64,000 nucleotides of DNA from an uncultured bacterium (GTDB taxonomy: Bacteria; Hydrothermota; UBA3073; NMUJ01): contig CBFDTI010000001.1 of the NCBI GenBank assembly GCA_965612795.1, positions 5,116 to 69,115 of the forward strand. The letters run 5' to 3'. Both the position numbers and the translations under genes were made by a program. Below are positions 1 through 54,167 of the stretch, piece after piece (within the stretch, counting starts at the first letter, position 1; each line of letters starts with the position of its first letter). Under the pieces are notes generated by a model. The model had not been told where the DNA came from. It ran no database searches and worked only from the letters and a program-made list of their open reading frames with translations.

Positions 1-3000
1 ACATACTTCAGGCTCCATCTCACCCAGCTCACGCATCGGCTGTCTCCCCTTTATCCTCAACTGCGGATACCCATACGCCCGATACCCTACCGCGGTTGCC
101 TTCACCCAATACCCCCGCCACGGCTCCATCCTATCCACCATCCTATACACACCGTCTTTATACTGCCACAACCATGGCTTTATCCATCCCCTTTGCACCG
201 CCTCATCCAACCCCACCCGCTGTATCGGTTTACCCCAGCTAACCCATTCCACCTCCACACTATCCCACTCCACTTCCATATTGAACGGCCCCCCTATAAT
301 ATTCCATCCATCATCCAACCCCACCACATACGGTTGCCCCGTATCTATCAGTGTACCAATAACTCTTATCTCACCCCCAGTATCTGCCACCACCACATAT
401 CCCTTACCTGGTTCTATGTATTCCACCTCCATGTATCTATCACCACACCATCGCATCACCTTCATCCCCCCAAATATCGAATCCACCTCACTCCATCTCG
501 GTTGCATCGGTATAGATACCAACCCCACACCATCCACCCTATGTCTCATCTCATCACCCACCACCATCACAATGTTTGGCCACTTATCATCCACCCTAAC
601 CTTCTGCTTAATGGTGTCACCCTCCACCACCGCCATCACTTCATACTCACCTGGCTCCACCTTATACTCAAACCGCCCCTTCTCATCCGTCTCCGCCTCA
701 AACTCACATCTACCATCACTCACGAACCTCACCTTCACCCCATGCTTACCATCACCCCACCAGCTACCCGTCACCCTACCTTTAGCTTCACAACTCCTTA
801 TCCCCACAAATGGGTTACCAAACAACGTCGCCCCCCACACCATACCCGTCGTATCCTCATACGGCCAACTCTTATACACCCTTCTTGTTGCCCACTTCTC
901 CACCTTCTCCGCATAGTATGCTGCCCCCATATACGCACCGCTCGCCAACCCCTTGTATACATGTTCATGATCCGTACCTATCCCCCTCGTCACCGCCATC
1001 ACCGTCGTACACATACTTCTACCCATTATATATGCCTCCGCTATTGTATAATCACTCTCTTTGTATATGAAATTACCCGCACTACATCCCCATATGAACG
1101 TTATCACCCCTCCCTGTCCCACCTGCCGTATCCACCACTCGTACACGTTACGTTTGGGCTCACGATCAAACTGCTGCAACATCGGCCCCGCATGCCCCCA
1201 CACATCCACAACCTCATACGGTTGTTGCAACAACCTCAGATACGTTTCACCGTCACCAAACACCCACCTATTACCCACTGCTATCACATTATCCCCATAT
1301 ATCGTACCTGCTATCTTCGCCATCTCCCACGCCGCACACCCATAATCATTATGCCCACAGTATATCAACACCCTATGTGGTACCACCATCTCACCCTCAT
1401 AGTAACGATGACACTTATCAAAGAAATACCGTATATTTTCCACATCACCATTCGTCCCCACGAAGCTCACCCACATCTGTGGCCGCCCTTCTTTACCCCA
1501 GTAATGCTTATCATACATACCATCACCATCCGTATCCTCAAACCTACCCTCCACATCCTCGTAATACAGTGCCATAGGGAACCTCCCATACGATGCCTCA
1601 AACATCGCCACCGGTATCCTACCCACCATTATCGCACCCGCTATCGTATCACATCGATACAACTCACGCAACATCTCTCGCACCTCCTCCGCCGTACACC
1701 ATTCCCCATAATATACATCTAATTCCATCCCCCACCCACGCTGCACATCATCCACATACCGCTCTATATAGCTCTGCAGCTCATGCTTCAACCTCCGTTC
1801 AACCAACATCACCGCTTTCCCCCTATTCATCATCTCCTTCAATGCACCATCAAACCCATACCCCGCAGGTGGCACATACTTACGTGCTGGTAGCTCACCC
1901 ACCACAGTCCTCACCCCCACTTCAACCTCACATTCATATGGTAACCTACATTTCTCACCCCCATGCACAAATCCAACCCTCACCCTGTACCTACCTGGCA
2001 CCTCCGGCACCTTCAGCTTACCACACAACTCCACTGTATCACCCACCGCTACTGGCTGTCCCAGCTTCATCACCTCCTCCCCCCGTACCAACCCCCACCT
2101 ATTTATCCACTCACAAACAAACCCATCACCCTCACTCCACGGTTTACCACCATCATTACACGCCTTAATCTTCACCTCTATCGTATCACCTGCCCTCACC
2201 TTATTATCCATATTCACCTCAATATACTTCACACCCACCACCTTCTCTCTTGTAAACTCATATATGTAGTTACCTGCCCCCACATACAGCTTATCCCCCA
2301 CCATAATGATCTCACCATCCACATACTCATCCAGCTCATACTCCCACACTATTTCACCATCACCCACATCTATCCCATACACCCGCTTATCCAACCCCCC
2401 TACATAGACAATATCGCCATCACCCCACGGCACCCCACGTGGTACATCACCTATCCTACAGCTCCACACCTCATCTCCCGTATTTTTGTCCACCGCATAC
2501 ACGTAACCATCGTCACACCCCACCACCACTTTATCATCCACCACTATCGGTTGTGTCTCCACCATACCACCCAGCTGCCTCGTCCATATCAACTCACCCG
2601 TCTCACCCTCCACCGCATACAGTTTATCCGTCCCCACATACAGTACACCATCATCCACCGCCGGCGCCCTATCCACCTTATATCCAGTCTCCACCCTCCA
2701 CATAATTCTACCATCTTCCAACCTCACCCCATACACACATCCATCAGTTCCTCCCACATACATCATATCGTCCCCCATAGCTGTTGCTTCATAGATCGAT
2801 CCATCCACCTCCGTCCTCCATATCAACCCACCCTCATCTGCATCCAAACAGTACACCCCCATCTGTGCACCAAAATACAACCTACCCTCCCTATACCATA
2901 CCTTACCCGCTATCTCACCACACGTCTCATACACCCATAAAGGTTTACCCCTGTGTCTATCAAAACAGTATACATTACCATCGAACCCCGCCACATACAG

Positions 3001-3255
3001 GTTATCACCCACCACCGTCGGTGTACCAGTGTAACTACTGTACCACCTATCCCCACATTTATATTCCCACATAAGCTCACCCGTCCTCACGTTGATAGCC
3101 TTAAGTTCACTCCCACCTGCATACATCACACTATCCACGATCGTCACCTTATTCGTCCCCACCTCATACCTATAGCCAAGATATAACGGTGGCTCCATCG
3201 CCCCCACATCTATAATCAGCATCACACCACATATCACACATACTCTTTGCCACAT
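1..3255 (-). CDS. Giant secreted multidomain surface protein, N-terminal part only; the C-terminus lies beyond the window start. It has a signal peptide and PQQ-type beta-propeller repeats, then a putative clan-CD (gingipain/C25-like) cysteine peptidase region.
   Basis: Reverse-complement translation from ATG 3255..3253 (SD AAAGGAGG 5 nt upstream, in-frame TAA just upstream) gives MWQRVCVICGVMLIIDVGAME... followed by repeats such as LYVAGFDGNVYCFDRHRGKPLW, GRLYFGAQMGVYCLDADEGGLIW, MMYVGGTDGCVYGVRLEDGRIMW (PQQ beta-propeller consensus). Further downstream (window ~900-1440) the frame stays open and reads ...VLIYCGHNDYGCAAWEM...VVDVWGHAGPMLQ...GVITFIWGCSAGNFIY..., a His/Cys arrangement (~36 aa apart) like clan CD peptidases. 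Not in ORF track because it runs off the window edge. Confidence 0.6.
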   Translation of the reverse strand, partial: MWQRVCVICGVMLIIDVGAMEPPLYLGYRYEVGTNKVTIVDSVMYAGGSELKAINVRTGELMWEYKCGDRWYSSYTGTPTVVGDNLYVAGFDGNVYCFDRHRGKPLWVYETCGEIAGKVWYREGRLYFGAQMGVYCLDADEGGLIWRTEVDGSIYEATAMGDDMMYVGGTDGCVYGVRLEDGRIMWRVETGYKVDRAPAVDDGVLYVGTDKLYAVEGETGELIWTRQLGGMVETQPIVVDDKVVVGCDDGYVYAVDKNTGDEVWSCRIGDVPRGVPWGDGDIVYVGGLDKRVYGIDVGDGEIVWEYELDEYVDGEIIMVGDKLYVGAGNYIYEFTREKVVGVKYIEVNMDNKVRAGDTIEVKIKACNDGGKPWSEGDGFVCEWINRWGLVRGEEVMKLGQPVAVGDTVELCGKLKVPEVPGRYRVRVGFVHGGEKCRLPYECEVEVGVRTVVGELPARKYVPPAGYGFDGALKEMMNRGKAVMLVERRLKHELQSYIERYVDDVQRGWGMELDVYYGEWCTAEEVREMLRELYRCDTIAGAIMVGRIPVAMFEASYGRFPMALYYEDVEGRFEDTDGDGMYDKHYWGKEGRPQMWVSFVGTNGDVENIRYFFDKCHRYYEGEMVVPHRVLIYCGHNDYGCAAWEMAKIAGTIYGDNVIAVGNRWVFGDGETYLRLLQQPYEVVDVWGHAGPMLQQFDREPKRNVYEWWIRQVGQGGVITFIWGCSAGNFIYKESDYTIAEAYIMGRSMCTTVMAVTRGIGTDHEHVYKGLASGAYMGAAYYAEKVEKWATRRVYKSWPYEDTTGMVWGATLFGNPFVGIRSCEAKGRVTGSWWGDGKHGVKVRFVSDGRCEFEAETDEKGRFEYKVEPGEYEVMAVVEGDTIKQKVRVDDKWPNIVMVVGDEMRHRVDGVGLVSIPMQPRWSEVDSIFGGMKVMRWCGDRYMEVEYIEPGKGYVVVADTGGEIRVIGTLIDTGQPYVVGLDDGWNIIGGPFNMEVEWDSVEVEWVSWGKPIQRVGLDEAVQRGWIKPWLWQYKDGVYRMVDRMEPWRGYWVKATAVGYRAYGYPQLRIKGRQPMRELGEMEPEVC

Positions 3256-3272
3256 AACACCTCCTTTAATTT

Positions 3273-3299
3273 AATTTATCGAATCCCCCCACTTGTGAA
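3273..3299 (-). promoter_or_regulatory. Putative promoter of the giant surface-protein gene (TTCACA -N15- TAAATT)
   Basis: Minus-strand reading: TTCACA (3299..3294), 15-nt spacer, TAAATT (3278..3273), ~18 nt before SD/ATG at 3255; same architecture as the tRNA promoters in this window. Confidence 0.3.
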
Positions 3300-3393
3300 C
3301 CATTTACTATCGCTATCCACCACCTCGCTGAATATAACGCCATCCTTATAAACATAACCCACAAACCCACAAGTTACCCCAGGCGTACACAAC

Positions 3394-3421
3394 TTGACAT
3401 TTTTGAAGTCTAAATTATTGA
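3394..3421 (+). promoter_or_regulatory. Putative promoter for the tRNA-Ser pair (TTGACA -N16- TATTGA)
   Basis: TTGACA at 3394-3399, TATTGA at 3416-3421, tRNA begins at 3435. Confidence 0.3.
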
Positions 3422-3434
3422 ATTATTAGACTAA

Positions 3435-3521
3435 GGAGGGTTAGCCTAATTGGTAAGGCGGCGGATTTGAAATCCGCTCCCCGCTGTAGCGGGGTTGGGG
3501 GTTCGAGTCCCTCACCCTCCG
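3435..3521 (+). tRNA. tRNA-Ser (anticodon TGA), class II with long variable arm, no encoded CCA
   Basis: Manual fold: acceptor GGAGGGT/ACCCTCC, D-arm GCC...GGC, anticodon stem GCGGA/TCCGC with loop TTTGAAA (TGA), variable arm CCCCGC/GCGGGG, T-arm GGGGG-TTCGAGT-CCCTC, discriminator G. Confidence 0.9.
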
Positions 3522-3522
3522 T

Positions 3523-3611
3523 GGAGAGGTGGCCGAGCGGCTTAAGGCAGCCGATTGCTAATCGGCTGAGGGGGTAAAACCCCTCCGTGGGTTCGAATCC
3601 CACCCTCTCCG
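3523..3611 (+). tRNA. tRNA-Ser (anticodon GCT), class II, separated from the preceding tRNA by 1 nt
   Basis: Acceptor GGAGAGG/CCTCTCC, anticodon stem GCCGA/TCGGC, loop TTGCTAA (GCT), long variable arm GAGGGGG..CCCCTC, T-arm GTGGG-TTCGAAT-CCCAC, discriminator G. Confidence 0.9.
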
Positions 3612-3618
3612 CTAATCG

Positions 3619-4548
3619 ATGTGGCTTTCTGTAATTTTTTTTATTCTCGGCCTCCTCCTGATAATCAAGGGCGCGGATTGGTTCACCGACGCCAGCCTCT
3701 CCCTGGCCAAAAAGTTAAACATCCCCACCATCGTAATAGGGGCAACCCTCGTCAGTGTAGCCACCACCATGCCCGAATTCTTCACCTCTTTAATAGCCAC
3801 CATAAGAGGTCACACCCAGATAGCCATCGGCAACGTACTCGGTTCCTGTATCTGCAACATCGGCCTCATACTCGGGCTCGTCTGGCTCTGTTCCACCTAT
3901 GTCCCCAACCACGACCGAACCGTACAGGTCAAATCCTTCCTCCTCATCGGTATGACCCTATCCGTATGGCTCCTCTCTTTCGGGTTCGGTTATACCACAC
4001 GTTGGCTCAGCCTGTTACTGCTCGGCTTCACAATCCTATTCCTCAACTACAACCGTCAGCTTACCGTCACCCACCGTCGTACCACCGTACCTATTGCATT
4101 CCCCGAGTTCTCACTCCCACGCACTTTATTATTTTTCTTCCTCGGGCTCGGCGCCCTACTCACCGGTAGCGACCTACTCGTACGTAACGGTGTCACCCTC
4201 GCACACACTCTTGGCATATCCGAGCTCGCCATCGGTATCTCACTCGTCGCCATCGGCACATCACTACCCGAGCTCGCCACCGCCATCGCCTCCATCATCA
4301 AGCATCACCCCGAACTCTCCGTCGGCAACCTCTTAGGTGCTGACGTACTCAACCTCGGTCTCATCATCGGTGTCTGTGGCCTCGTCTCCCCCTTACCACT
4401 CTCCTACATCACACGCGTATTATCCTTACCTCTGCTGTTGATACTAACGCTTATCGTCTTCTCACCCCGCGGTAACATACGTCTACGTGGCATTTCACTA
4501 TTATGCATTTACATAGCATATCTCATACTACACCTATGGTATGGCTAA
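3619..4548 (+). CDS. Ca2+:cation antiporter, CaCA family (YrbG-like Na+/Ca2+ exchanger)
   Basis: Polytopic membrane protein with the two alpha-repeat signatures GNVLGSCICNIGLILG and SVGNLLGADVLNLGLIIG. Confidence 0.8.
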   Translation: MWLSVIFFILGLLLIIKGADWFTDASLSLAKKLNIPTIVIGATLVSVATTMPEFFTSLIATIRGHTQIAIGNVLGSCICNIGLILGLVWLCSTYVPNHDRTVQVKSFLLIGMTLSVWLLSFGFGYTTRWLSLLLLGFTILFLNYNRQLTVTHRRTTVPIAFPEFSLPRTLLFFFLGLGALLTGSDLLVRNGVTLAHTLGISELAIGISLVAIGTSLPELATAIASIIKHHPELSVGNLLGADVLNLGLIIGVCGLVSPLPLSYITRVLSLPLLLILTLIVFSPRGNIRLRGISLLCIYIAYLILHLWYG

Positions 4549-5471
4549 TCCTTCTACCACTTATTTCACCTTCTGATACCGTCACCATACTCATACCCCC
4601 CGGCACCACCATCTACACAATCTCACAAACCTTACATGATTCCGGCATCATCCAAAGCCCCTGGCTTTTCCGCATATGGGCACGCCTCACCGCCACCGAT
4701 CGTCACCTCCAATCCGGCCTTTACCGTTTCCCTCGCCCCTATACCATTGAAGCCACACTACACAAACTACGTACAGGTAAGGGTGAGCTCATCAAACTCA
4801 CCATCCCCGAAGGCCTCACCTTACATGAAATTGCCACACTTGTCGAATCCCATCTTTACGTACCACGTGACAGCTTCCTCCACTATGCACACGATACCTC
4901 CTTCTTACACAGCTTAGGCATACCCGCCACCACCGCCGAAGGTTACCTATTCCCCACCACCTATTTCCTACCACCCTTCATCTCCGCCCGCCACGTACTA
5001 AAGGAGATGATACATCAGTTCTACCAACACATCACCCCCGACATGCTAAACCGTGCCTCACAGCTCGGCTTCTCCCTACACGAAATCGTCACCCTCGCCT
5101 CCATCATCGAAAAAGAAGCCGTCCTCAAATCCGAGCTACCACTCATCTCATCCGTCTTCCACAACCGGCTCTCCCGTGGCATGAAACTCGAAGCCAACCC
5201 CACCGTCGAGTATGCATTAGGTCATAAAAAGCGCTGGCTCACCAACAAAGATTTACAAACCCCTTCCCCCTATAATACCTATCTATATCCCGGGTTACCA
5301 CCCGGCCCCATCTGTAACCCCAGCCTCGACGCAATACTTGCTGCCTTATATCCCGCAGATACTGATTATCTTTACTTTGTCAGCCGTGGCGACGGCACCC
5401 ATATCTTTTCCAAAACCTACACCGCACACAAGCGTGCCGTCCGCCGTCTACGTAAGTTCTGGCTCCGTTAG
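4536..5471 (+). CDS. mltG: Endolytic murein transglycosylase MltG (YceG-like)
   Basis: C-terminal signature SPYNTYLYPGLPPGPICNP plus N-terminal TM segment; start moved to ATG 4536 (MVWLILLPLI) to avoid 45-nt overlap with upstream gene; ORF-track start 4503 also possible. Confidence 0.8.
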   Translation: MVWLILLPLISPSDTVTILIPPGTTIYTISQTLHDSGIIQSPWLFRIWARLTATDRHLQSGLYRFPRPYTIEATLHKLRTGKGELIKLTIPEGLTLHEIATLVESHLYVPRDSFLHYAHDTSFLHSLGIPATTAEGYLFPTTYFLPPFISARHVLKEMIHQFYQHITPDMLNRASQLGFSLHEIVTLASIIEKEAVLKSELPLISSVFHNRLSRGMKLEANPTVEYALGHKKRWLTNKDLQTPSPYNTYLYPGLPPGPICNPSLDAILAALYPADTDYLYFVSRGDGTHIFSKTYTAHKRAVRRLRKFWLR

Positions 5472-8400
5472 AACTTAAACTCCGTCCAGACCCTCACCCC
5501 CAATATCTGCGTATCCGTACCACGTGTCCTCTCCTTACTACGGCTGTAGTTTATGCTTGCACCCCCCACAATAACCGACGAAAACCTATACGAACCCTCC
5601 AACCTCACACTTATACTATAGCTATCACGTGTCTTATGTCCCGTCGTGATATTCTTCCTCTCATCCACTGTACGACTAACTTTAAGGTTGAAGTTCACCG
5701 ACCTCCCACCTTTCAACCACCCCAGTATCGGTGTCCCTCCCTGTGTTGTCACACTAAACGATGTACTGAAATTCACATTCTGTCGCCTATTACTCCATAC
5801 GTTGCGGTTCCAATCCTCCTCTTTACTGCGGGTTTCACTTATACTGAAGCTTATCGGCATATTGGGTTTCTTAAGGTTAGCCCCACTGATCTGCAAATTC
5901 CATTCCTCCTGCACACTCTGAATCGTATCCCCACGTTCACACCTCACCGTACGTGACTTCTTATAATTCAAAGATGGGCTCACCCCAGTTATAAGTTTAG
6001 CCATCCCCGGTATGTACCTCTCTACCCCCGTAATCCTAACCATCGCATCCGGGAACCTCACCACCTCCTGTACTGAAAAGTTACCCAACTTACCACCACT
6101 CGTCCTACTCTCCTGATAGTTGATGCTAACACTCAGAATATCTTTCAGGTTGAACCCCGACCCTACCTTCAGGTTGAACCCATCCTGCTTCATATCATCC
6201 GTATACGGTAACTTAGGTAGGTTCTCAAAATCCACCCTCCTACCGTATCGGAACTCACTCGGCGGCCGTTCCTTCAGGTAATAAAACCTAAACGTCCTAT
6301 TATTTGATACACTCACCTGCACCGGATTCACCCACCCAAGTAGTGGTAACTCCTTCGTCGGCAATGTAATATTAAACTCATTCCTTATGTCGAGCCCCAC
6401 ATTCCTCAAATCCATCGTATCACTTATGAGCTCCCTACCATGATATTCGTTATACCCCACACTGTAAGTCCATCTCGGTTGTAACTTCCATACGCTCGGC
6501 GTAAGGTTTATCGAAACGTTCTCCCTCCAATTCGTCTGTGCCTCTATAACCATATCCTGTACCACCTCCAACCCATACCTCACCGATATCATCTTCATCG
6601 GACTATACCCCACATTCGCCGAATATGTGATATTCCTCTGCCACGGTGTCCTCCTGCTCAACGTATAGGTTTCACCCATCCTCCTGTACCTCACCGCATG
6701 TTGTGCCCCATAACTTGCACCCAACCTTATACTCTGTGGCAACATCTGCCATTCCCATTTCCATATAGAAATAGGTTTGATAGATGGCCTCACCTCATAC
6801 GTCGCATTCAACGTCGCATTATACGATGAATCTATACTTTCATACGATTCGTTCCACCCCTGCCTGTAACTACCCGTAACATTCAAATTATCAAATATCA
6901 CATGCGTAAGCCAGAACTTCGACGCCTTACTCTTACGCCAGCTCACCGTCACACTACGGTTTTCTGCCAAACTCGCATAATCCTTACGCACATCCTCCTT
7001 CAGCTCAACATCCTTACCCGCCAGATATCTGGGTAAACTGCGACTCCTGCTCATCGTCACCCGCACCGGTATCACCACACCCCAATCCTTCGGCAAGAAC
7101 TTATGTAAGCTCACACTTCCGTTCACCGTATACGCGTACCTCTCACCTCCCCCAAACCTATACGCTTCACCCATCTGTTTAAAATACGGATCCCTATGCG
7201 TAAACGCAACATCCACATCCGCCACATCCGCCAGCTTCACCTTACCTCTTAACTCGCTCGCAAACCCCACCTCTGCCCGCACCTCACTCAAAAACAGATC
7301 ATCCACCCATATAACCCCAGACACAGTCTGTTCACCTTCATTCGCTATCACAAGCTCTATCCTCCTGATATTTGTAAGCGATGGCCTCCCCTTTATCCCG
7401 TATATCCCCTGCCTGAATATACCCTCAACCGTATCCGGACGTATCATCTTCAGGTTTGTCAACTCCTTAAATGGTACCCTAATCTCACGCCACTCGTACC
7501 CATCAAGCTCCACTTTATACTCATAGAAATTGGACGTATCACCCCCAAACCTCACATATAACGTAACCGGGTCACCCTCATACAGCCTCACATAGAACAC
7601 CAGACTCTTATACATCAAGAAATCCATCCCATTCGGCTCGGTAAAATACACTCTTACACTGCTGTCAGGTGCCACCTCCCGATACGTCAACACCATCGAC
7701 CCTTCTGGTTTCAACCTACCCAGTTCGTCACGCTCCACCTTCACCTCCGGTGGCGGCGTATATTCCTCCGCCCCTATCGTCGATATATACGATATTTCGA
7801 CTTTCGGTTCACCTTCCGCTGGTTTAACCACCCTCCACTTCGTACCTACCACATTAAACTCCACTATATCCACAGTATCGGGTTCACCCACCTCCACCCA
7901 TATACGTGCCATCCTTATGCGATCCCATGAGGGTACCCCCACCACCTTGTACACTTGCTTAAGCGGCACCTGATACAATCGCCACCCATTGTACTCATCC
8001 ACCAAGAACACCGTATCTTCCAGATCCACCCTATACTCGTAGTAGTTTTCCTCCAGATCGAGCACCCCATTACCGTTAAGATCCTCAGTATTCAACCGCC
8101 CATCACCCTCCGTCCCATTAATATGCGAGTAATCATACGGCCTACTCGGATCGTACCTGTAGTCATCATTACCATCGTCACCTGGTACATTATCCTCATC
8201 ATCTCCCCTAACACCGTCCAACCCCACATCATCCACATCCTGCGACCACTCCCTCGTTACAGGGTCACCCTCTGCATCCAACTCACCGTTATACCCCTGT
8301 ATTGAACCATCCGCCACCCTTCTCGGTGCATCCTCCGGTATATTAGTACCCAGATCCACATACAACACACCCTTACCACGTACACGTATCTCTATATAAT

Positions 8401-46255: not shown

Positions 46256-46993
46256 TCACCCCCTTGTTATACTAAAAGTCGCCAAATACTGTTTAATAAG
46301 TGGTATGTTGGAGGTTTTGAACTCCTCAATATCGCCCTCGAAGATTATCTTACCTTCCGCCAACATCGCTATTTTATCCGCTACGGTAAATGTACACTGT
46401 AGATCATGTGTCACAATTATTGCTGTAAGTCCAAGTGTTTTCTGTAGTTCCTTTATTAACTCGTTTATCTTTTGTGCAGTGAGTGGATCCAATCCCGTCG
46501 TAGGTTCATCAAATAGTAGATATTTGGGTTCCATTGCCAACGCACGTGCAATAGCTACACGTTTTTTCATACCACCCGAGAGCTCCGATGGCATAAGTTC
46601 TTCGCTACCCGCCATCTCAACGAGTGTGAGTTTATCACGTGCTATACGACGTAGATTCTCCTCCGGCAAATGGTCGTGCACCCTCAATGCAAGTGTAACA
46701 TTTTCCCATACAGGTGACGAGTCGAGTAACGCCGAGCCCTGAAACACCATAGCCATTTTCCTACGTATGTTCCAAAGCTGTTTGCTGGATGCTCTCGTTA
46801 TATCTATACCATCTATAAATATATTACCGCTGTCAGGTTTAAGTAACCCTATGATGTGTTTCAATAACACACTTTTGCCCACCCCCGAACGCCCCAATAT
46901 TACAGTGATCTTCTTCTCTGGAATTATGAGGTTTACACCCCTTAACACATGGTTATCACCAAAGGATTTATGTAAATCTTTAACCTCTATCAT
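46256..46993 (-). CDS. ABC transporter ATP-binding protein, MlaF-like
   Basis: Walker A GRSGVGKS, signature LSGGMKKRVAIARAL, Walker B LLFDEP. Confidence 0.8.
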   Translation of the reverse strand: MIEVKDLHKSFGDNHVLRGVNLIIPEKKITVILGRSGVGKSVLLKHIIGLLKPDSGNIFIDGIDITRASSKQLWNIRRKMAMVFQGSALLDSSPVWENVTLALRVHDHLPEENLRRIARDKLTLVEMAGSEELMPSELSGGMKKRVAIARALAMEPKYLLFDEPTTGLDPLTAQKINELIKELQKTLGLTAIIVTHDLQCTFTVADKIAMLAEGKIIFEGDIEEFKTSNIPLIKQYLATFSITRG

Positions 46994-47754
46994 AAGTAAT
47001 TAAACATCAGCACACCAACAACGTTGTCAAACAACAACACAAGTACTGAAGCAGCTACTACACTTTGAGTAGCACATTTACCTACACTTTCGGCACCTCC
47101 CATAGCTTTCATCCCATAGAAGGTACCAATAATACCTATTATTACACCGAATACTGCACTCTTGACAAGGCTACCCGCAAACTCTATCGGCAGAAAATTA
47201 AACCTTAATCCCTCTATGTAGTTGATCAATTTTATATGAAGTAAAGTAGCTGCACATACCCCACCACCTATCATAGCAGAGACCTCACCCACCATCGTCA
47301 ATATCGGGGTAGCAATCAACGTCGCCATTATCCTTGGCAATATTATGTAATGATAAGGATCTATAGCAAGTGTCTCAAGAGCATCTATCTGCTCGGTGAC
47401 CTTCATGCTACCTATCTCTGCTGCTAAAGCTGACGTCACCTTACCTGCGAGTAGCAACCCCGTTAATAATGGACCTAACATTATAAGGAACGCTTTTGCT
47501 ACTGCCATACCTATGTACACTTCAGGGAAATACCCCCTCCCCTGAAAGGCGGCTTGATACGCGGTGGCAAATCCACCAAAGAAGAGCGTTATCAATATGA
47601 TGGATAACGAACCTACACCAAGCTTCCAAACTTCACTGATAATAGATGGTATCACACTGAAAACCCTCGGTAAACGCTTGAGCACTTCCCATATAAATAG
47701 TGTAAGCTCCCCTACATAACTAAGTGCCTTCATATTGCCTCTCAAGTTCCACAA
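46990..47754 (-). CDS. ABC transporter permease, MlaE-like
   Basis: Five-TM permease with conserved ...ILPRIMATLIATPIL... segment. Confidence 0.75.
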   Translation of the reverse strand: MWNLRGNMKALSYVGELTLFIWEVLKRLPRVFSVIPSIISEVWKLGVGSLSIILITLFFGGFATAYQAAFQGRGYFPEVYIGMAVAKAFLIMLGPLLTGLLLAGKVTSALAAEIGSMKVTEQIDALETLAIDPYHYIILPRIMATLIATPILTMVGEVSAMIGGGVCAATLLHIKLINYIEGLRFNFLPIEFAGSLVKSAVFGVIIGIIGTFYGMKAMGGAESVGKCATQSVVAASVLVLLFDNVVGVLMFNYL

Positions 47755-49060
47755 AACGGGTATAATCTTCTTGAAAATATAGTTGTGTTATACCCACAGG
47801 ACCATTACGATTTTTACCAATAATTACTTGGAAAATATTTTGTTCAGTTTCGGTCTCCGGTTTGTGTAAAAATATCACAATATCTGCATCCTGCTCTATA
47901 GCACCAGATTCACGTAAATCCGATAATTTTGGTGGCCTCTTCTCCCTCGCAGCAGCCCTCGATAGCTGCGATACTGCAATAACCGGTAAGTCTAACTCTT
48001 TGGCTAAATCTTTCAACGATCTGGATATAAAGCTTATCTCCTGCTGACGATTCTCCATTCTACGGTGTGACGTAATAAGCTGTAGATAATCGACTATTAT
48101 GAGCTTGACATCTTCTCGTGATTTAAGTCTCCGTGCCTTTGCACGTAATTCCAGTATAGATATTGCCGGTGTATCATCAATAAAGATAGGAGATTCGGAG
48201 AGATTACCCGACGCAGTGTATAATCGGGAGAGATCCTCTTGTGTTATATTACCGGTCCGTACTTTATGGATACCCACCTGTGCATGCATACACAGTAGAC
48301 GTTGTACAACATGCTCTTTTGACATTTCTAAACTAAAAAACGCAACCGGCACAGGTGGATCCGAACGTACCGCGAGATGTTCTATAATATTAAGTGCAAA
48401 TGCTGTTTTACCCATACCAGGGCGCGCTGCTAGGACAATAAATTCACTGTTATGAAAACCTGCAGTATATTTATCAAGATCATTGAACCCAGAAGGTATA
48501 CCAGTGATGAACCTTCGTTCCCTATAAGCCTTTTCTATCATCTCGAACACATCCGTAAGCACCGCACGTACAGGTATAAACCCCCTCTTTATTCTCTTCT
48601 CTTTAATAGAGAATATGAGTCTCTCCGCCTCATCCAACGTCTCATCCACGTCCTCCGGCATAGCATACGCTGCCTCGATGATCTTTTTACCAGCTCGTAT
48701 CATCTCACGCAAAACAGCCTTGTCTGCAACTATGCGCGCATAATGCTCGATATTTGCCAGAGAGGCGACGCTTTCTAACAAATTGGCTAAGAACTCTTTT
48801 CCGCCAATTTCTTCTAACATTCCTTTGTCTTTCAGTTTTTCGGCCAATGTCACAACATCAACAACTTCGTTTGATTCATACATTTCGACTATTGTTTCAA
48901 AGATTTGGCGATGCGATTTGAGGTAGAATGTGTTAGGTGTAAGCATAGTTATGACCTTCTCTATAGCATCTTTACTCATTATCATAGCACCCAGCAGGCT
49001 ACGTTCTGCGTCTACTGAGTGTGGTTCGTATGCCTCAATTTGTTCTTTCTTCTCTTTCAT
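47720..49060 (-). CDS. dnaB: Replicative DNA helicase DnaB
   Basis: N-terminal DnaB domain, Walker A ARPGMGKTAFALN, RecA-fold motifs. Confidence 0.9.
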   Translation of the reverse strand: MKEKKEQIEAYEPHSVDAERSLLGAMIMSKDAIEKVITMLTPNTFYLKSHRQIFETIVEMYESNEVVDVVTLAEKLKDKGMLEEIGGKEFLANLLESVASLANIEHYARIVADKAVLREMIRAGKKIIEAAYAMPEDVDETLDEAERLIFSIKEKRIKRGFIPVRAVLTDVFEMIEKAYRERRFITGIPSGFNDLDKYTAGFHNSEFIVLAARPGMGKTAFALNIIEHLAVRSDPPVPVAFFSLEMSKEHVVQRLLCMHAQVGIHKVRTGNITQEDLSRLYTASGNLSESPIFIDDTPAISILELRAKARRLKSREDVKLIIVDYLQLITSHRRMENRQQEISFISRSLKDLAKELDLPVIAVSQLSRAAAREKRPPKLSDLRESGAIEQDADIVIFLHKPETETEQNIFQVIIGKNRNGPVGITQLYFQEDYTRFVELERQYEGT

Positions 49061-49724
49061 CGTAAAGTCTCCTTAGTAATTTAAGATGTTCCCAGGCCTC
49101 TTTTTTCCAACCTCCGTGTCTAAGCAGTGCTGCTGGGTGAAATGTTGGTAACACTTTAATTCCCTTCCAGTCGCATATTTTACCTCGTAGTCTACTGAAT
49201 TCATACCTACTTTTCTCCAATATTACCGATGTAGCAAATTTACCCAATGTCAATATTATGCTGGGCTTTATAATTTCGATCTGACGTATTAGATAATCTT
49301 TACATGCTCTTATCTCTTCCGGTAGAGGATCTCGGTTCCCTGGTGGCCTGCATTTCAATACATTCGCTATATAGACGTCCTCCCTACTAAATCCAATAGC
49401 TTCTAACATCTTATCCAGCAGTTTACCTGCTTCACCCACGAACGGTCTGCCTTGCAGATCTTCTTCCCTACCTGGTGCCTCACCTACCAACATGATGACA
49501 CAATTTGGATTACCTTCCCCAAACACCACCTTGTTCCTGGTCTTGTGTAATCCACACTTTTTGCACTCCAAAACCTTCCTCTTAAGTTCATCCAAAACTT
49601 TAACCTTACCCTCTTTTATCGCCTTACCTGTTACCCTTATTACACTATTTTCAAGCCAATAGATACCCCTACCCAACAACTCTTCACTCTTAAAGTATTG
49701 CTTTAATTTATCAATTTTCATCAA
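49035..49724 (-). CDS. Uracil-DNA glycosylase, family 4
   Basis: [21 protein letters not shown] motif and Cys cluster. Confidence 0.85.
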
Positions 49725-50346
49725 AAATAAAAAAATTTTCTACCTTATCTACAATTATTTTGCTCAATTTTCTTTTCGATACCCTACCGATATCCCAAAT
49801 TTTAAGCTCTCTATCCACAATTATTGCCTCAATATTATCGCTACCAAATGTCGTTGGTTTATTAACAACTATCATATCGAGTCCTTTTTTCCTCAGCTTC
49901 TCTACCCCATTCCATACCATAAATTCTGTCTCCAATGCGAATCCGACTAGGGTCTTACCTGGGTATCGTTTTCTTGTGATTTCCAGCACATCTGGTGTGG
50001 GTTCGAACTTAGGCTCAAATTTTACATCTTTTTTAAGCTTCTTGTTGTATCTCTTGACCGGCTTAAAATCTGTGGGTGCTGCACACATTATTAATGCCGC
50101 CCCCCTCTTTAAGTTTTCGACGACTGCATTGAGCATCTCTTCTGTTGACTCCACTCGCACAAATTCTACTCCTACCGGTTTTTCCAACCCTGTGGGTCCA
50201 GACACCAGTATAACATGTCCTCCCCTATCTCTAATCTCTTCCGCTATAGCGTATCCCATTTTACCCGAAGCTGGGTTTGAGATAAATCTCACCGCATCTA
50301 TATACTCTCTAGTAGGTCCCGCTGTCACCACTATAGTTCTACCCAC
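49711..50346 (-). CDS. coaB: Phosphopantothenate--cysteine ligase (CoaB domain), encoded separately from CoaC
   Basis: VVTAGPTREYIDAVRFISNPASGKMGYAIAEE; GTG start at 50346 immediately after an A9 run. Confidence 0.8.
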   Translation of the reverse strand: MGRTIVVTAGPTREYIDAVRFISNPASGKMGYAIAEEIRDRGGHVILVSGPTGLEKPVGVEFVRVESTEEMLNAVVENLKRGAALIMCAAPTDFKPVKRYNKKLKKDVKFEPKFEPTPDVLEITRKRYPGKTLVGFALETEFMVWNGVEKLRKKGLDMIVVNKPTTFGSDNIEAIIVDRELKIWDIGRVSKRKLSKIIVDKVENFFIFDEN

Positions 50347-50900
50347 TAAACTTTTTTTTTATCCAGAATTTCTTCCACAAATTTCACTATCTTCTCGGGG
50401 TTACGCATCCTACCCTTACCGATCTTACCGGACGCCAGCTCACCCTCCTCCGGCTCTATTATCTTATATCCCATAACTTCCGACAACTTTCTGATATTTT
50501 CCTGCAACACTTTATTTTCCCATAACCTTTCTTCCATGGCAGGTGCCAACACCACCGGTGCCCTTGTTGTTGCAACTGTTGCCAACAACACATTATCTGC
50601 AATACCAGCCGCTACTTTGTTAATAAAATCGTAACTAGCGGGTGCCACTAACACCAAGTCAGCATCTGCCAACTCCACATGTACTGGTACAGTTTGTGAT
50701 ATAAAAAACTCGCTATAAACCTTATTCTGGCTCAACACCTCCGCTGCAAGTGGCGAAACAAACTGTTTAGCATCCGGTGTCAACACAACCTTCACCTCGT
50801 ATCCTTCTTTCCTGAGCAACCTCACAATTTCCAACCCTTTATATGCAGCAATACTCGCAGTAATACCGAGTATCACCTCTCCTTTTCTTCCTCTTTCCAT
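50346..50900 (-). CDS. coaC: Phosphopantothenoylcysteine decarboxylase (CoaC flavoprotein domain)
   Basis: ILGITASIAAYKGLEIVRLLRKEGYEVKVVLTPDAKQFV flavoprotein motif; ends ...LDKKKV* in the A9 run. Confidence 0.8.
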   Translation of the reverse strand: MERGRKGEVILGITASIAAYKGLEIVRLLRKEGYEVKVVLTPDAKQFVSPLAAEVLSQNKVYSEFFISQTVPVHVELADADLVLVAPASYDFINKVAAGIADNVLLATVATTRAPVVLAPAMEERLWENKVLQENIRKLSEVMGYKIIEPEEGELASGKIGKGRMRNPEKIVKFVEEILDKKKV

Positions 50901-51103
50901 ACCACCTTCTTCTCTATGAGCCTCCTTAAGCTTTCCAGGCTAAAGTTTCGCAACTCACCCCCCATTATCTCGCCACCTAACATCTTAAAATCACGAAATA
51001 TCCTATGCGCCTCTTTAGCCGCTATCACTATCGCCTTATATTTGTTATCCACAACCTTCTCCAAATCCTCAACTGCTACAAATGGTCTCTTTTTTTCTGC
51101 CAT
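50873..51103 (-). CDS. rpoZ: DNA-directed RNA polymerase omega subunit
   Basis: VAVEDLEKVVDNKYKAIVIAAKEAHRI resembles the RpoZ core; conserved position upstream of coaBC. Confidence 0.6.
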   Translation of the reverse strand: MAEKKRPFVAVEDLEKVVDNKYKAIVIAAKEAHRIFRDFKMLGGEIMGGELRNFSLESLRRLIEKKVVWKEEEKER

Positions 51104-51119
51104 TTTTATCCTGTTAAGT

Positions 51120-52205
51120 CTAACTTCCTCTATAAAAGGGTAGTTTCACTATCTCCGCATTTACTCGTTTCCCTCTTATATCCACCTCCACTTTGGTTCC
51201 CACCCCATACGTTATATTGACGTATCCCATACCAATCCCGCATCCCAGTGTAGGCGAATATCCCCCACTCGTAATGTATCCTATCTCCTCATCCCCGAAA
51301 TATAAGAGCTGACCCTTCCTCGGTACGGCCTTAGCTTCTCTCACTATTATCCCTACTCTATGTCTTGTCATCTTCTCCTTCTTCAACCTCAAACTTTCCT
51401 TACCTATAAATTCACCTTTGTTGAGTTTCACAACCCATCCTAACTTTGCTTCCCAAGGTGTAGTGGTCTCATCAATATCATTCCCATACAGTGGTAACCC
51501 AGCTTCTAACCTCAACATATCCCGTGCAATCAACCCACATACTGCCATATTGTACTTTTTACCCCTTTCTATCAACCTATCCCATACCTTCACACTATCT
51601 TCCGATGATATGTAAATCTCCACCCCATCCTCTCCGGTATACCCTGTACGAGATACCATCACCCTCACATTGTCAATCTTACTTCTCGTCATTTCGAATC
51701 TACGAATCTGTGACACCTTCCCTTCCGTAAGCTCGTCCACCATTTCTATCGCTTTTGGCCCCTGTACCGCTATAAGTACCGTTCTATCACTTATATCCTC
51801 CACCTGTACCTTAAATTTTCTGCTATTCTCCCTCACCCATTCATAATCTTTACTTATGTTTGCAGCATTGACCACCAACATAAACTCATCCCCTTCCAAC
51901 CTGTATACGATTAGATCGTCTACAATACCACCTTCCGTATTACACATCATCGAATACTGTGCTGAAAATGGTTTCAGTTTACCCACGTCATTTACTGTGA
52001 TATAGTTAACGAACTCAAACGCCCCCTTCCCTCTTATACTGAACTCACCCATGTGGGAAACATCAAACATTCCCACTTTCTCCCTAACTGATCGTACCTC
52101 TTCTATCACCCCACGATAATACATAGGCATGTAGAAGCCCGCAAACTCACCCATCTTCGCACCCAGCTCCACGTGCCTCTCATGGAGAGGCAACTGCTTC
52201 AGCAT
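51120..52205 (-). CDS. gcvT: Glycine cleavage system T protein (aminomethyltransferase)
   Basis: N-terminal ...LHERHVELGAKMGEFAGFYMPMYY...GMFDVSHMG GcvT signature. Confidence 0.9.
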   Translation of the reverse strand: MLKQLPLHERHVELGAKMGEFAGFYMPMYYRGVIEEVRSVREKVGMFDVSHMGEFSIRGKGAFEFVNYITVNDVGKLKPFSAQYSMMCNTEGGIVDDLIVYRLEGDEFMLVVNAANISKDYEWVRENSRKFKVQVEDISDRTVLIAVQGPKAIEMVDELTEGKVSQIRRFEMTRSKIDNVRVMVSRTGYTGEDGVEIYISSEDSVKVWDRLIERGKKYNMAVCGLIARDMLRLEAGLPLYGNDIDETTTPWEAKLGWVVKLNKGEFIGKESLRLKKEKMTRHRVGIIVREAKAVPRKGQLLYFGDEEIGYITSGGYSPTLGCGIGMGYVNITYGVGTKVEVDIRGKRVNAEIVKLPFYRGS

Positions 52206-53305
52206 TACTCTTCTGGTACGAATCTATCTTTGAGCTTCTCCATAACCTGCGGCAACGTTGTATACTCCATTTCGGCAAGCCCTAACCTATGTGGTTCAAA
52301 CGGTCCATGTGCCCTCATATAGTTTGCGATAACGTTCGCCATACCGCGTGCCTCATCGAAACTCGGGTCATCAAACATATCACGTGGCCCCACAAGCATC
52401 CCATCCTGCGTTATCTGTAAACCTGCTGCTATAACTCGTGGCGGGCCATCAAACCTTGATGGATTGGCTTGCTCAAATCCCACAGGCATAAGCGGTCCAT
52501 GATGAGACCCTCTCATCCATCCTGCCACCAGGTGTGGATTCGTAAACGGCTCCAACACCTCACCCACTGCTGGGAAGCCACTCTGTGTCCTCACTATAAG
52601 TACCGGATCATCTTTCCCCACATATCTACCAGCCATCATCGATAGCTTCTGAGTCGATGACACAGCTGCTATCTCGCCATCCTTTCTGAAGACTCGCTTA
52701 ATTATGTAATGCTCCATTGCCCCTATTAAAACAAGCATATCATATATCTCTTCAGGTGTATCAAACACTATTTTCTTGTGCTCATACACATCCAAGACTT
52801 CAAACTTAAACCCATTATGAAGTTTAGGATCTATCACCAATCCTGCCGTGTTGAACGGATCTGCAAAAATCTTATATAGGATGAAATTCCATGCCCCCGG
52901 TGATGTTTTATCCGCCATGAAAACAATCACAGGTTCGCTGGGTCTCACCTCAATTTCCATCTCCGCCACACCCGGTCCCATACCTTTCACATTGCCTGAG
53001 AATGCTTCACTAAGTATATCCTGGCCTGCTCCGTATAAGCCCATCTTCTTCGCAATCTCCGTACATGCGGTAAATATATCCCACGCTGTTTTGTGGATAT
53101 CCGGGTTATCTTCACCCTTCGTATGTGTCATTATGAGTTCCAGATCATCTCCACAATGCAATACCCTATAATCTTTGATGATTCCTCTCTCTTTTGCCTT
53201 ACCTAATTCCTCCTTCGCCTCATCCATGAGTGCTGGATGCATAGAAGAGTGGCCAACATATCCACCGATATCCGCTTTTATCACTGATAATGTAACCTTA
53301 CCCAT
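52205..53305 (-). CDS. fbp: Fructose-1,6-bisphosphate aldolase/phosphatase (class V FBPase, archaeal-type)
   Basis: N-terminus MGKVTLSVIKADIGGYVGHSSMHP and length match the bifunctional FBPA/P family. Confidence 0.8.
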   Translation of the reverse strand: MGKVTLSVIKADIGGYVGHSSMHPALMDEAKEELGKAKERGIIKDYRVLHCGDDLELIMTHTKGEDNPDIHKTAWDIFTACTEIAKKMGLYGAGQDILSEAFSGNVKGMGPGVAEMEIEVRPSEPVIVFMADKTSPGAWNFILYKIFADPFNTAGLVIDPKLHNGFKFEVLDVYEHKKIVFDTPEEIYDMLVLIGAMEHYIIKRVFRKDGEIAAVSSTQKLSMMAGRYVGKDDPVLIVRTQSGFPAVGEVLEPFTNPHLVAGWMRGSHHGPLMPVGFEQANPSRFDGPPRVIAAGLQITQDGMLVGPRDMFDDPSFDEARGMANVIANYMRAHGPFEPHRLGLAEMEYTTLPQVMEKLKDRFVPEE

Positions 53306-53316
53306 TTTTTCCTCCT

Positions 53317-53610
53317 TTATTTAATCTCTGACACCATACTTATGGCGTCAAACGGGCACTCCACTGCACATATGCCACATCCCTTGCAATACTCATAATC
53401 TATCACAAAACGCTCATTTTCTATCACAATAGCAGGTTCGGGACAGTACTTCCAACATATTCCACAGTTTTTACATTTTCCATAGTCGATCACGGGTCGC
53501 ATCTGACGCCATGTCCCAGTTTTGTTAACTCGCATACTACTTAATGATACAGCCAACGGTGGCATATCTTCAACACCTGCCCATTCTATCTTCTTAGCTT
53601 CCTTTTTCAT
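53317..53610 (-). CDS. 2-oxoacid:ferredoxin oxidoreductase delta subunit (2x[4Fe-4S] ferredoxin)
   Basis: CKNCGICWKYCP and CKGCGICAVECP motifs. Confidence 0.75.
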   Translation of the reverse strand: MKKEAKKIEWAGVEDMPPLAVSLSSMRVNKTGTWRQMRPVIDYGKCKNCGICWKYCPEPAIVIENERFVIDYEYCKGCGICAVECPFDAISMVSEIK

Positions 53611-54167
53611 CTTAACCTCTTCTTCATAATTTCATAAGCCTCTTCAGCTGCTTTCACATTTTCCTCTTTTTTGACGGGTGCAAGCTTATAGACTGCCTTA
53701 AGTATTGCCTCTTTCGACACTATACCCGACCACGCAGCGAATGCACCCACCATTGGTGTATTCACAATAGGTGCAGTTTTTGACCCCAACCCATACTTAA
53801 CGGCTATACTTGTAGCGTCAATAGTTGCTATACTGTAGTTCACGTTTAGATTAAGTTCATCCGGTTCCCGTGGTGTATTGATAAGCACCTTACCACCATC
53901 TTTTAACCCTTCAAACACATTAACGCCACCTCCAATAAGTGTAGGATCAAGTACCACCACCATATCTGGGTGATATATTTTGCATCTTAAAAATATCTTA
54001 CAGTCGTTCACCCTCAAAAACGTAGCCACCGGTCTACCTCTTCTTTCAACCCCATACTCCGGAAACGCCTGTGCAAACTTACCTTCGCTCACCAATGCAT
54101 CCGCAAGTATCTTAGACGCTACCACTGTACCCTGACCACCCCTACCGTGCATCCTTATTTCTATCAT
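53607..54167 (-). CDS. 2-oxoacid:ferredoxin oxidoreductase gamma subunit
   Basis: MIEIRMHGRGGQGTVVASKILA gamma-subunit signature. Confidence 0.8.
   Translation of the reverse strand: MIEIRMHGRGGQGTVVASKILADALVSEGKFAQAFPEYGVERRGRPVATFLRVNDCKIFLRCKIYHPDMVVVLDPTLIGGGVNVFEGLKDGGKVLINTPREPDELNLNVNYSIATIDATSIAVKYGLGSKTAPIVNTPMVGAFAAWSGIVSKEAILKAVYKLAPVKKEENVKAAEEAYEIMKKRLR

Follow-up and report, generated by a model that had tools for sequence, protein, structure and literature searches.

Comparative evidence for a recent fission of coaBC at an A9 homopolymer in an uncultured bacterial lineage

Introduction

In CoaBC (Dfp) enzymes, a phosphopantothenoylcysteine decarboxylase flavoprotein domain (CoaC) and a phosphopantothenate-cysteine ligase domain (CoaB) are carried by one polypeptide. 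The Mycobacterium smegmatis enzyme consists of CoaC (residues 1-179), a short connecting loop and CoaB (residues 190-414) (PMC7794376). When expressed alone, M. smegmatis CoaB forms no dimer and is inactive, whereas Escherichia coli CoaB by itself dimerises and is active (PMC7794376). CoaB can thus work without being fused, but not necessarily in every lineage. Separate coaC and coaB (PPCDC and PPCS) genes are known in Streptococcus pneumoniae and Mycoplasma iowae, and the arrangement varies among M. fermentans strains (PMC8721197).

Long A or T runs inside genes form a second body of relevant cases. Such runs are visibly selected against in many bacterial genomes once they reach nine nucleotides (PMC1088944). 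In dnaX of Thermus thermophilus, which harbours a 9A run, about half of the product stems from slipped transcripts, and Baranov et al. (2005) described genes that remain functional after frameshift mutations landing on 9A, called "pseudo pseudogenes" (PMC1088944). Slippage at the A11 run of Citrobacter rodentium tssM has been proven experimentally (PMC4256274). The catalogue of frameshifted gene clusters in PMC3711429 makes no mention of coaBC. Here we describe a coaC-coaB pair whose boundary coincides with an A9 run, and we compare it with these systems.

Results

A coaBC-type gene broken at an A9 run

The window, meaning the whole 64,000-nucleotide stretch of DNA analysed, carries on its minus strand a coaC ORF of 184 residues (50346..50900), identified from the ORF list, Pfam and TIGR00521, followed by a coaB ORF of 211 residues (49711..50346). 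CoaC corresponds to the decarboxylase flavoprotein domain and ends in ...DKKKV*, and CoaB corresponds to the ligase domain, with (M)GRTIVVTAGPTREY as its N-terminus. The 3' end of coaC on the minus strand reads ...GAA ATT CTG GAT AAA AAA AAA GTT TAG. The A9 homopolymer (50352..50360, minus strand) thus supplies three Lys codons to the linker between the domains, an in-frame TAG stands two codons past it, and coaB lies in a different frame. Stop and start share one nucleotide within a TAGTG (50344..50348, minus strand), in which TAG (50348-50346) ends coaC and GTG (50346-50344) opens coaB. The initial annotation had placed the split between the two genes exactly at the A9, and the sequence and coordinates confirm this. 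It had also proposed that one additional nucleotide, or a -1 slip, would restore a canonical CoaBC; adding one A to the run indeed generates a 396-residue ORF with ...DKKKSLVGRTIVVTAGPTREY... at the junction (hereafter called the virtual fusion), which matches TIGR00521 from end to end.

The A9 is the longest homopolymer of the 64-kb window. As 0.61 A9 or T9 runs are expected by chance per 64 kb, with at least one in 33 of 100 shuffles, a single run is within chance for this length, and we rejected the idea of a compositional enrichment. It is the location of the run that matters, not the mere existence of one A9. The second-longest homopolymer is a T8 at 3635-3642 on the plus strand. The window also displays a strand asymmetry, with 16.5% G and 28.9% C on the plus strand; most long ORFs between ~22 and 57 kb are on the minus strand, and the coding strand is rich in G and in purines.

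TIGR00521 (coaBC_dfp) is an NCBIfam equivalog with a curated cut-off of 219.7 bits. The virtual fusion gives one continuous match to it (residues 8-387, profile positions 5-391/392, 382.5 bits), while CoaC matches positions 5-181 with 192.1 bits and CoaB positions 186-391 with 174.1 bits. Both encoded halves thus fall below the cut-off, which the virtual fusion alone exceeds, and no segment of the profile is lost or duplicated at the break. In Pfam, CoaC matches Flavoprotein (PF02441) and CoaB matches DFP (PF04127), and the CoaB motifs AGPTRE, SGKMG and KKLKK are kept. Neither of the two ORFs holds both domains in one polypeptide, as a bifunctional CoaBC does. Descent from a CoaBC-type gene is apparent from fused relatives with 88-90% identity, from an identical gene neighbourhood and from the way in which the halves jointly fill the profile, and on these grounds we regard the two ORFs as CoaBC halves by descent. 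The monofunctional families of streptococci were not matched above their cut-offs (CoaC, 139.6 bits against 261.4 for TIGR02113; CoaB, 57.6 bits against 217.2 for TIGR02114). A tblastn search revealed no second copy of coaB or coaC within the 64-kb window.

The Lys run and the new stop align to the loop formed by residues 180-189 in the structure of M. smegmatis CoaBC (6TGV), and CoaB read from the GTG has its first residue no more than a few positions away from the N-termini of crystallised stand-alone constructs (5INT, 4QJI/6TH2 and 1U7U from E. coli). As judged from these alignments, the break is at the inter-domain boundary.

A separate observation concerns the substrate-binding region of CoaC. 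Residues ~115-122 (window ~50534-50557, minus strand) read PAMEERLW, both in the window lineage and in the two sister clades described below, and align with PAMHTEMW in M. smegmatis CoaBC. The E. coli and plant enzymes presumably have Asn at the substrate-binding position of this motif, and the Glu found here may be unusual.

The two genes belong to a tightly packed minus-strand operon of at least nine genes (window ~46990-54000), in which stop/start overlaps range from 1 to 28 nucleotides. Its order is por/fer4-fbp (class V FBPase)-gcvT-76-aa ORF-coaC-coaB-udg-dnaB-mlaE, as also seen in positions 1-6555 of a same-lineage contig (L001). The 76-aa ORF (50873..51103, minus strand) overlaps the start of coaC by 28 nucleotides and has a sub-threshold match to RNA_pol_Rpb6 (omega), at 17 bits for a cut-off of 26. 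It occupies the position that rpoZ has upstream of coaC in a Phycisphaerales genome (L098), and it is possibly rpoZ.

Fused sister clades and the origin of the split

The closest relatives fall into three clades, namely the split clade S, which includes the window, and the fused clades F1 (L084-86, L088 and L089) and F2 (L087, L091 and L092). The three are approximately equidistant, with 90-91.5% nucleotide identity in the coaBC gene, and have in common the neighbourhood por/fer4-fbp-gcvT-76-aa ORF-coaBC-udg-dnaB-mlaE. F1 and F2 encode fusions of 395-396 residues, with the junction GAT AAA AAG AGT TTA GCR GGT AGA (D K K S L A G R), and homologues beyond these two clades are likewise fused. Because both the sister clades and the more distant homologues are fused, the split is the derived state. 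When genome contigs were searched with the virtual fusion, the matches listed comprised distant CoaBCs only, with at most 46% identity; the close relatives compared here were retrieved by looking up exact protein sequences.

Three changes distinguish clade S at the junction. A G>A substitution leaves the A run unbroken, and two A's are gained, turning AAAAAGA into A9 with a net change of +2 nucleotides, so that GTT TAG is read where the fused frame had ..GT TTA G.. In the following codon, which is GCG or GCA (Ala) in the sisters, GCG>GTG yields a start codon that shares a base with the new stop. When the window is aligned with L088, L089 or L085 across ~6.5 kb, the junction is the sole indel, with one gap opening.

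These differences are consistent with the following course. The ancestral AAAAAGA would have become A9 through the G>A substitution and the insertion of two A's overall, for which replication slippage is the simplest cause. The ensuing frame shift would make CoaC terminate at the TAG, two codons after the A9, and the C>T transition of GCG>GTG would supply a start codon overlapping this stop (UAGUG in the mRNA). The tract may have passed from A7 to A10 and then to A9, by way of an in-frame Lys insertion, or it may have gained two nucleotides directly. As ~2 substitutions are expected per 45 nucleotides on this branch, GCG>GTG could be a coincidental Ala>Val substitution.

One F1 contig stands apart from all others. 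In L084 (JGI 3300005265; NCBI contig Ga0073580_103027), gcvT and UDG are 321 and 116 residues long, as compared with 361 and 228 in every other contig, and the upstream coordinates are offset by ~117 nucleotides, which suggests defects or indels in an older assembly.

Uniformity of the A9 run and selection on coaB

We collected eight clade-S sequences from eight samples, i.e., the window, whose own contig is on record in NCBI, and contigs from seven others (L001, L002, L003, L090, L093, L094 and L095), which correspond to two ENA k141 MEGAHIT assemblies and five JGI metagenomes. The string GGAT-A9-GTTTAGTGGGT, with the A9 run and TAGTG, occurs in every one of the eight, and so does the arrangement of an in-frame TAG two codons past the run with coaB in another frame. 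The sequences are 99.1-99.9% identical to the window in coaC-coaB, each with private SNPs, and the seven other samples encode the exact 184-residue CoaC and 211-residue CoaB or variants that differ by 1-3 residues. In the flanking 4-6.5 kb, the alignment of the window with three same-lineage contigs is gapless for two and has a single gap opening for the third. In a collection of ~15 billion proteins, we found neither the exact sequence of the virtual fusion nor any fused version of the split lineage at >90% identity; the best fused matches reach only 88-90% amino acid identity.

Parsimony on the three-clade tree assigned 10 amino acid changes in CoaC and 11 in CoaB to the branch of the window lineage, as compared with 3 and 12, and 8 and 12, respectively, for the fused lineages. 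The CoaB changes on the window branch being comparable to those on the fused branches, CoaB is not accelerated. Polymorphism in coaB within clade S, which postdates the frameshift, amounts to 10 synonymous and 3 nonsynonymous differences, where ~22% synonymous changes would be expected at random (binomial p=4e-5, or 1.3e-3 with transitions only). This synonymous excess implies that the coaB frame is translated and selected. The full-length coaB ORF is intact in all eight sequences. These patterns indicate that coaB has been under purifying selection since the split and that both halves remain functional.

The same data bear on three other readings of the locus. The initial annotation had raised a homopolymer error of sequencing or assembly, the true genome then having A10 or A7 and an ordinary fused coaBC. 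Although such length errors are frequent on some platforms, and one more base mends the ORF, the agreement of eight independent assemblies on A9, across differing pipelines and samples and in spite of variation at other sites, effectively excludes this reading; two clade-specific substitutions are also present at the junction, and no further indel was found across 6.5 kb. The genuine split envisaged in the same annotation is the version that the eight A9 and TAGTG sequences uphold. Its proposal of a phase-variable fusion fared less well. In such a contingency locus, the tract would flip within populations from A9, which splits the gene, to A10 or A7, which fuse it, and back, and thereby switch the protein architecture. 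Homopolymers of nine nucleotides are hypermutable in replication (PMC1088944; PMC3711429), and the tract length has evidently been altered once in this lineage. However, the eight consensus sequences from eight samples are all A9, with no difference in tract length among populations at the consensus level, no fused variant of the lineage is on record in the protein collection, and it is not apparent why a housekeeping enzyme of CoA synthesis should switch; we therefore hold phase variation to be very unlikely. Still harder to credit is a decaying pseudogene, in which the frameshift would have killed CoaB and pantetheine salvage or another enzyme would substitute for it. The ORF is disrupted, coaB has no Shine-Dalgarno (SD) sequence and some bacteria do have salvage routes (PMC8721197), but the 10:3 ratio of synonymous to nonsynonymous polymorphisms (p=4e-5), the lack of a surplus of amino acid changes on the window branch, and a coaB ORF that is whole in the eight sequences, with AGPTRE, SGKMG and KKLKK present, all speak against decay. 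The comparative data thus indicate that the fission of coaBC is genuine, derived, recent and fixed in one lineage, and that it is not a sequencing error.

Expression of the downstream half

No SD sequence was found upstream of the coaB GTG (ggataaaaaaaaagttta GTG). In the same operon, coaC, dnaB and fbp are preceded by clear SDs, while gcvT, which overlaps fbp through a TAATG, and udg are not. With the same strand, the same operon and the stop/start overlap of TAGTG, coaC and coaB form a pair of overlapping genes. The initial annotation had proposed to judge the break by whether a uniform A9 goes together with relatives that are also split and have independent ribosome-binding sites. The outcome is mixed, with a split gene throughout the same-lineage populations, a fused one in the sister clades and, for coaB, no SD of its own but a newly arisen GTG on the stop.

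Ribosomes that end CoaC synthesis would reinitiate at UAGUG on coaB, as they appear to do at other overlapping genes of this operon, in spite of the missing SD. The products would be two separate functional enzymes, a CoaC oligomer and CoaB. Since the clade-specific GTG arose exactly on the stop, we favour such coupling, and termination-reinitiation at UAGUG is most likely the main route to CoaB. The combined reading, a genuine fission in which CoaB is made chiefly by termination-reinitiation, with slippage as a side route, seems to us a reasonably probable account of the locus. In this reading, RNA polymerase on the A9 would probably yield a smaller share of transcripts with A10, and by analogy with the 9A genes some slippage-derived full-length CoaBC possibly supplements CoaB.

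An RNA hairpin of uncertain status, with a 10-bp stem, is predicted around the UAG stop and GUG start (50308..50350, minus strand). Two clade-S substitutions, GCG>GTG and a synonymous ACC>ACT, extend its stem from 5 to 10 bp. Its predicted energy is -11.1 kcal/mol in clade S as compared with approximately -8 kcal/mol in the fused clades at 37 C, and -3.7 as compared with approximately -2 kcal/mol at 65 C. The fold energy of the region does not depart from that of shuffled sequences (z from -0.09 to 0.19). A hairpin at this place would fit coupling, as it would leave the start accessible only to ribosomes that come from coaC; with z close to 0, however, we do not rely on it.

Several points temper the case for coupling. 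A GTG without an SD is a weak initiation site, and it may have arisen as a chance Ala>Val; CoaB need not work on its own, as the M. smegmatis protein is inactive alone (PMC7794376); and nine A's is the very length from which transcriptional slippage turns efficient in many bacteria (PMC1088944), so that most CoaB activity could derive from the fused protein. The corresponding alternative is a rescue of the "pseudo-pseudogene" type, in which CoaB activity would come mainly from full-length CoaBC, through an A added by RNA polymerase or a ribosomal -1 shift on A_AAA_AAA, with an incidental GTG. The A9, which besides being the site of the net +2 change relative to the fused relatives is a potential RNA-polymerase slippage site, coincides with the junction, and with A10 the transcript encodes intact CoaBC. 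The locus has the layout of the 9A class, i.e., a run of at least nine A or T at the junction of two ORFs, where one more base gives a product of homologue length; 9A slippage is efficient, with ~50% of the T. thermophilus dnaX product and frameshifted genes on 9A that stay functional (PMC1088944), and tssM with A11 is a further case (PMC4256274). The missing SD of coaB and the activity of M. smegmatis CoaB only when fused (PMC7794376) point the same way. By our calculation, A8 or A11 transcripts would give a CoaC ending in ...FSG*. Against this reading, the run is kept solely within a clade of at least 99% identity and shows no sign of being selected; in the sister clades, which are 90-91.5% identical, AAAAAGA takes its place within one continuous ORF, and the combination of run and two ORFs is absent across diverged homologues. 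A start codon placed precisely on the stop is moreover needless if slippage supplies CoaB. We consider this rescue possible but rather doubtful as the main route.

The A9 could also be a selected recoding device, slippage or -1 frameshifting then fixing the CoaC:CoaB:CoaBC ratio. In this event, mixed dodecamers would tune the flux or regulation of CoA synthesis in the manner of the dnaX tau/gamma or tssM length variants, but for a core metabolic enzyme. A_AAA_AAA is indeed an in-frame slippery heptamer (X_XXY_YYZ) in the coaC frame. The 20 nucleotides upstream of the heptamer contain no SD-like motif by inspection, and no stimulatory structure was predicted ~5-9 nucleotides downstream. The hairpin described above, the only one predicted, starts 1-2 nucleotides after the heptamer, too near for -1 frameshifting, and was rejected as a programmed-frameshift stimulator, its fold energy being that of shuffled sequences. 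As the run is absent in the sisters and suitable stimulators are missing, evidence for a programmed site is lacking, and the clade is too shallow to display selection; we regard a selected device as improbable.

Discussion

The locus offers an unusually clean snapshot of a gene fission, in which the ancestral junction, the homopolymer expansion and the start-creating point mutation are all visible, and population data show that the downstream half stayed under selection after the break. For annotation purposes, coaC and coaB should neither be merged, nor flagged as a sequencing error, nor called a pseudogene, as they are a real, selected pair. The lineage also represents a natural test of whether Dfp-type CoaB needs a covalent linkage to CoaC, which is the case in mycobacteria and not in E. 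coli. No new mechanism has to be invoked, since there are documented cases of separate coaB and coaC genes, of translational coupling and of rescue by slippage on A9.

With canonical CoaBC (Dfp; TIGR00521, 6TGV), the pair has in common the two domains in the same order, the motifs and the position of the linker, and its immediate relatives are fused. It differs from CoaBC by its two ORFs in different frames.

The presence of the two activities on separate polypeptides is common to this locus and to S. pneumoniae, Mycoplasma iowae, Phycisphaerales and Omnitrophota. In the complete genome of a Phycisphaerales bacterium (CP070744.1), the order is rpoZ-coaC (202 residues)-77 nucleotides-coaB (209 residues), which is also the order found here if the 76-aa ORF is rpoZ, although the 77-nucleotide spacer there contrasts with an overlap here. 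In Omnitrophota (L096 and L099), coaB has been relocated behind prfA. All these are old, settled splits with spacers or relocation, and the streptococcal proteins belong to a sequence family of their own. The split described here is in contrast very recent, with at least 99% identity within clade S and fused sisters at ~9-10% divergence; the genes still overlap, and the traces of the mutations can still be read.

A homologue search with the 211-residue CoaB returned many stand-alone Dfp-type CoaB ORFs of 205-215 residues on long contigs. As this search left out the fused proteins P0001-P0006, which are 89% identical, and thus appears biased towards similar length, it is unusable for a split:fused ratio. 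A number of DFP-only proteins from Omnitrophota, Ratteibacteria, Phycisphaerales and others (P0147, P0179, P0189, P0206, P0217, P0228, P0259, etc.) are named 'phosphopantothenoylcysteine decarboxylase' in NCBI, so that CoaB is probably being mislabelled systematically as CoaC.

The locus resembles the 9A slippage cases, dnaX and tssM, by its A run on the sense strand at an overlapping-ORF boundary, where one non-templated A gives a collinear protein. Unlike in most 9A cases, the run is limited to one shallow clade, and the downstream ORF has its own start on the stop, so that slippage is not needed. Coupled overlapping pairs of the TAATG or ATGA type, including fbp/gcvT in the same operon, have in common with coaC/coaB the one-base overlap of stop and start and a downstream gene without SD. 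The pair described here departs from them in that its start codon is GTG rather than ATG and in that the overlap arose by a frameshift inside a once-single gene.
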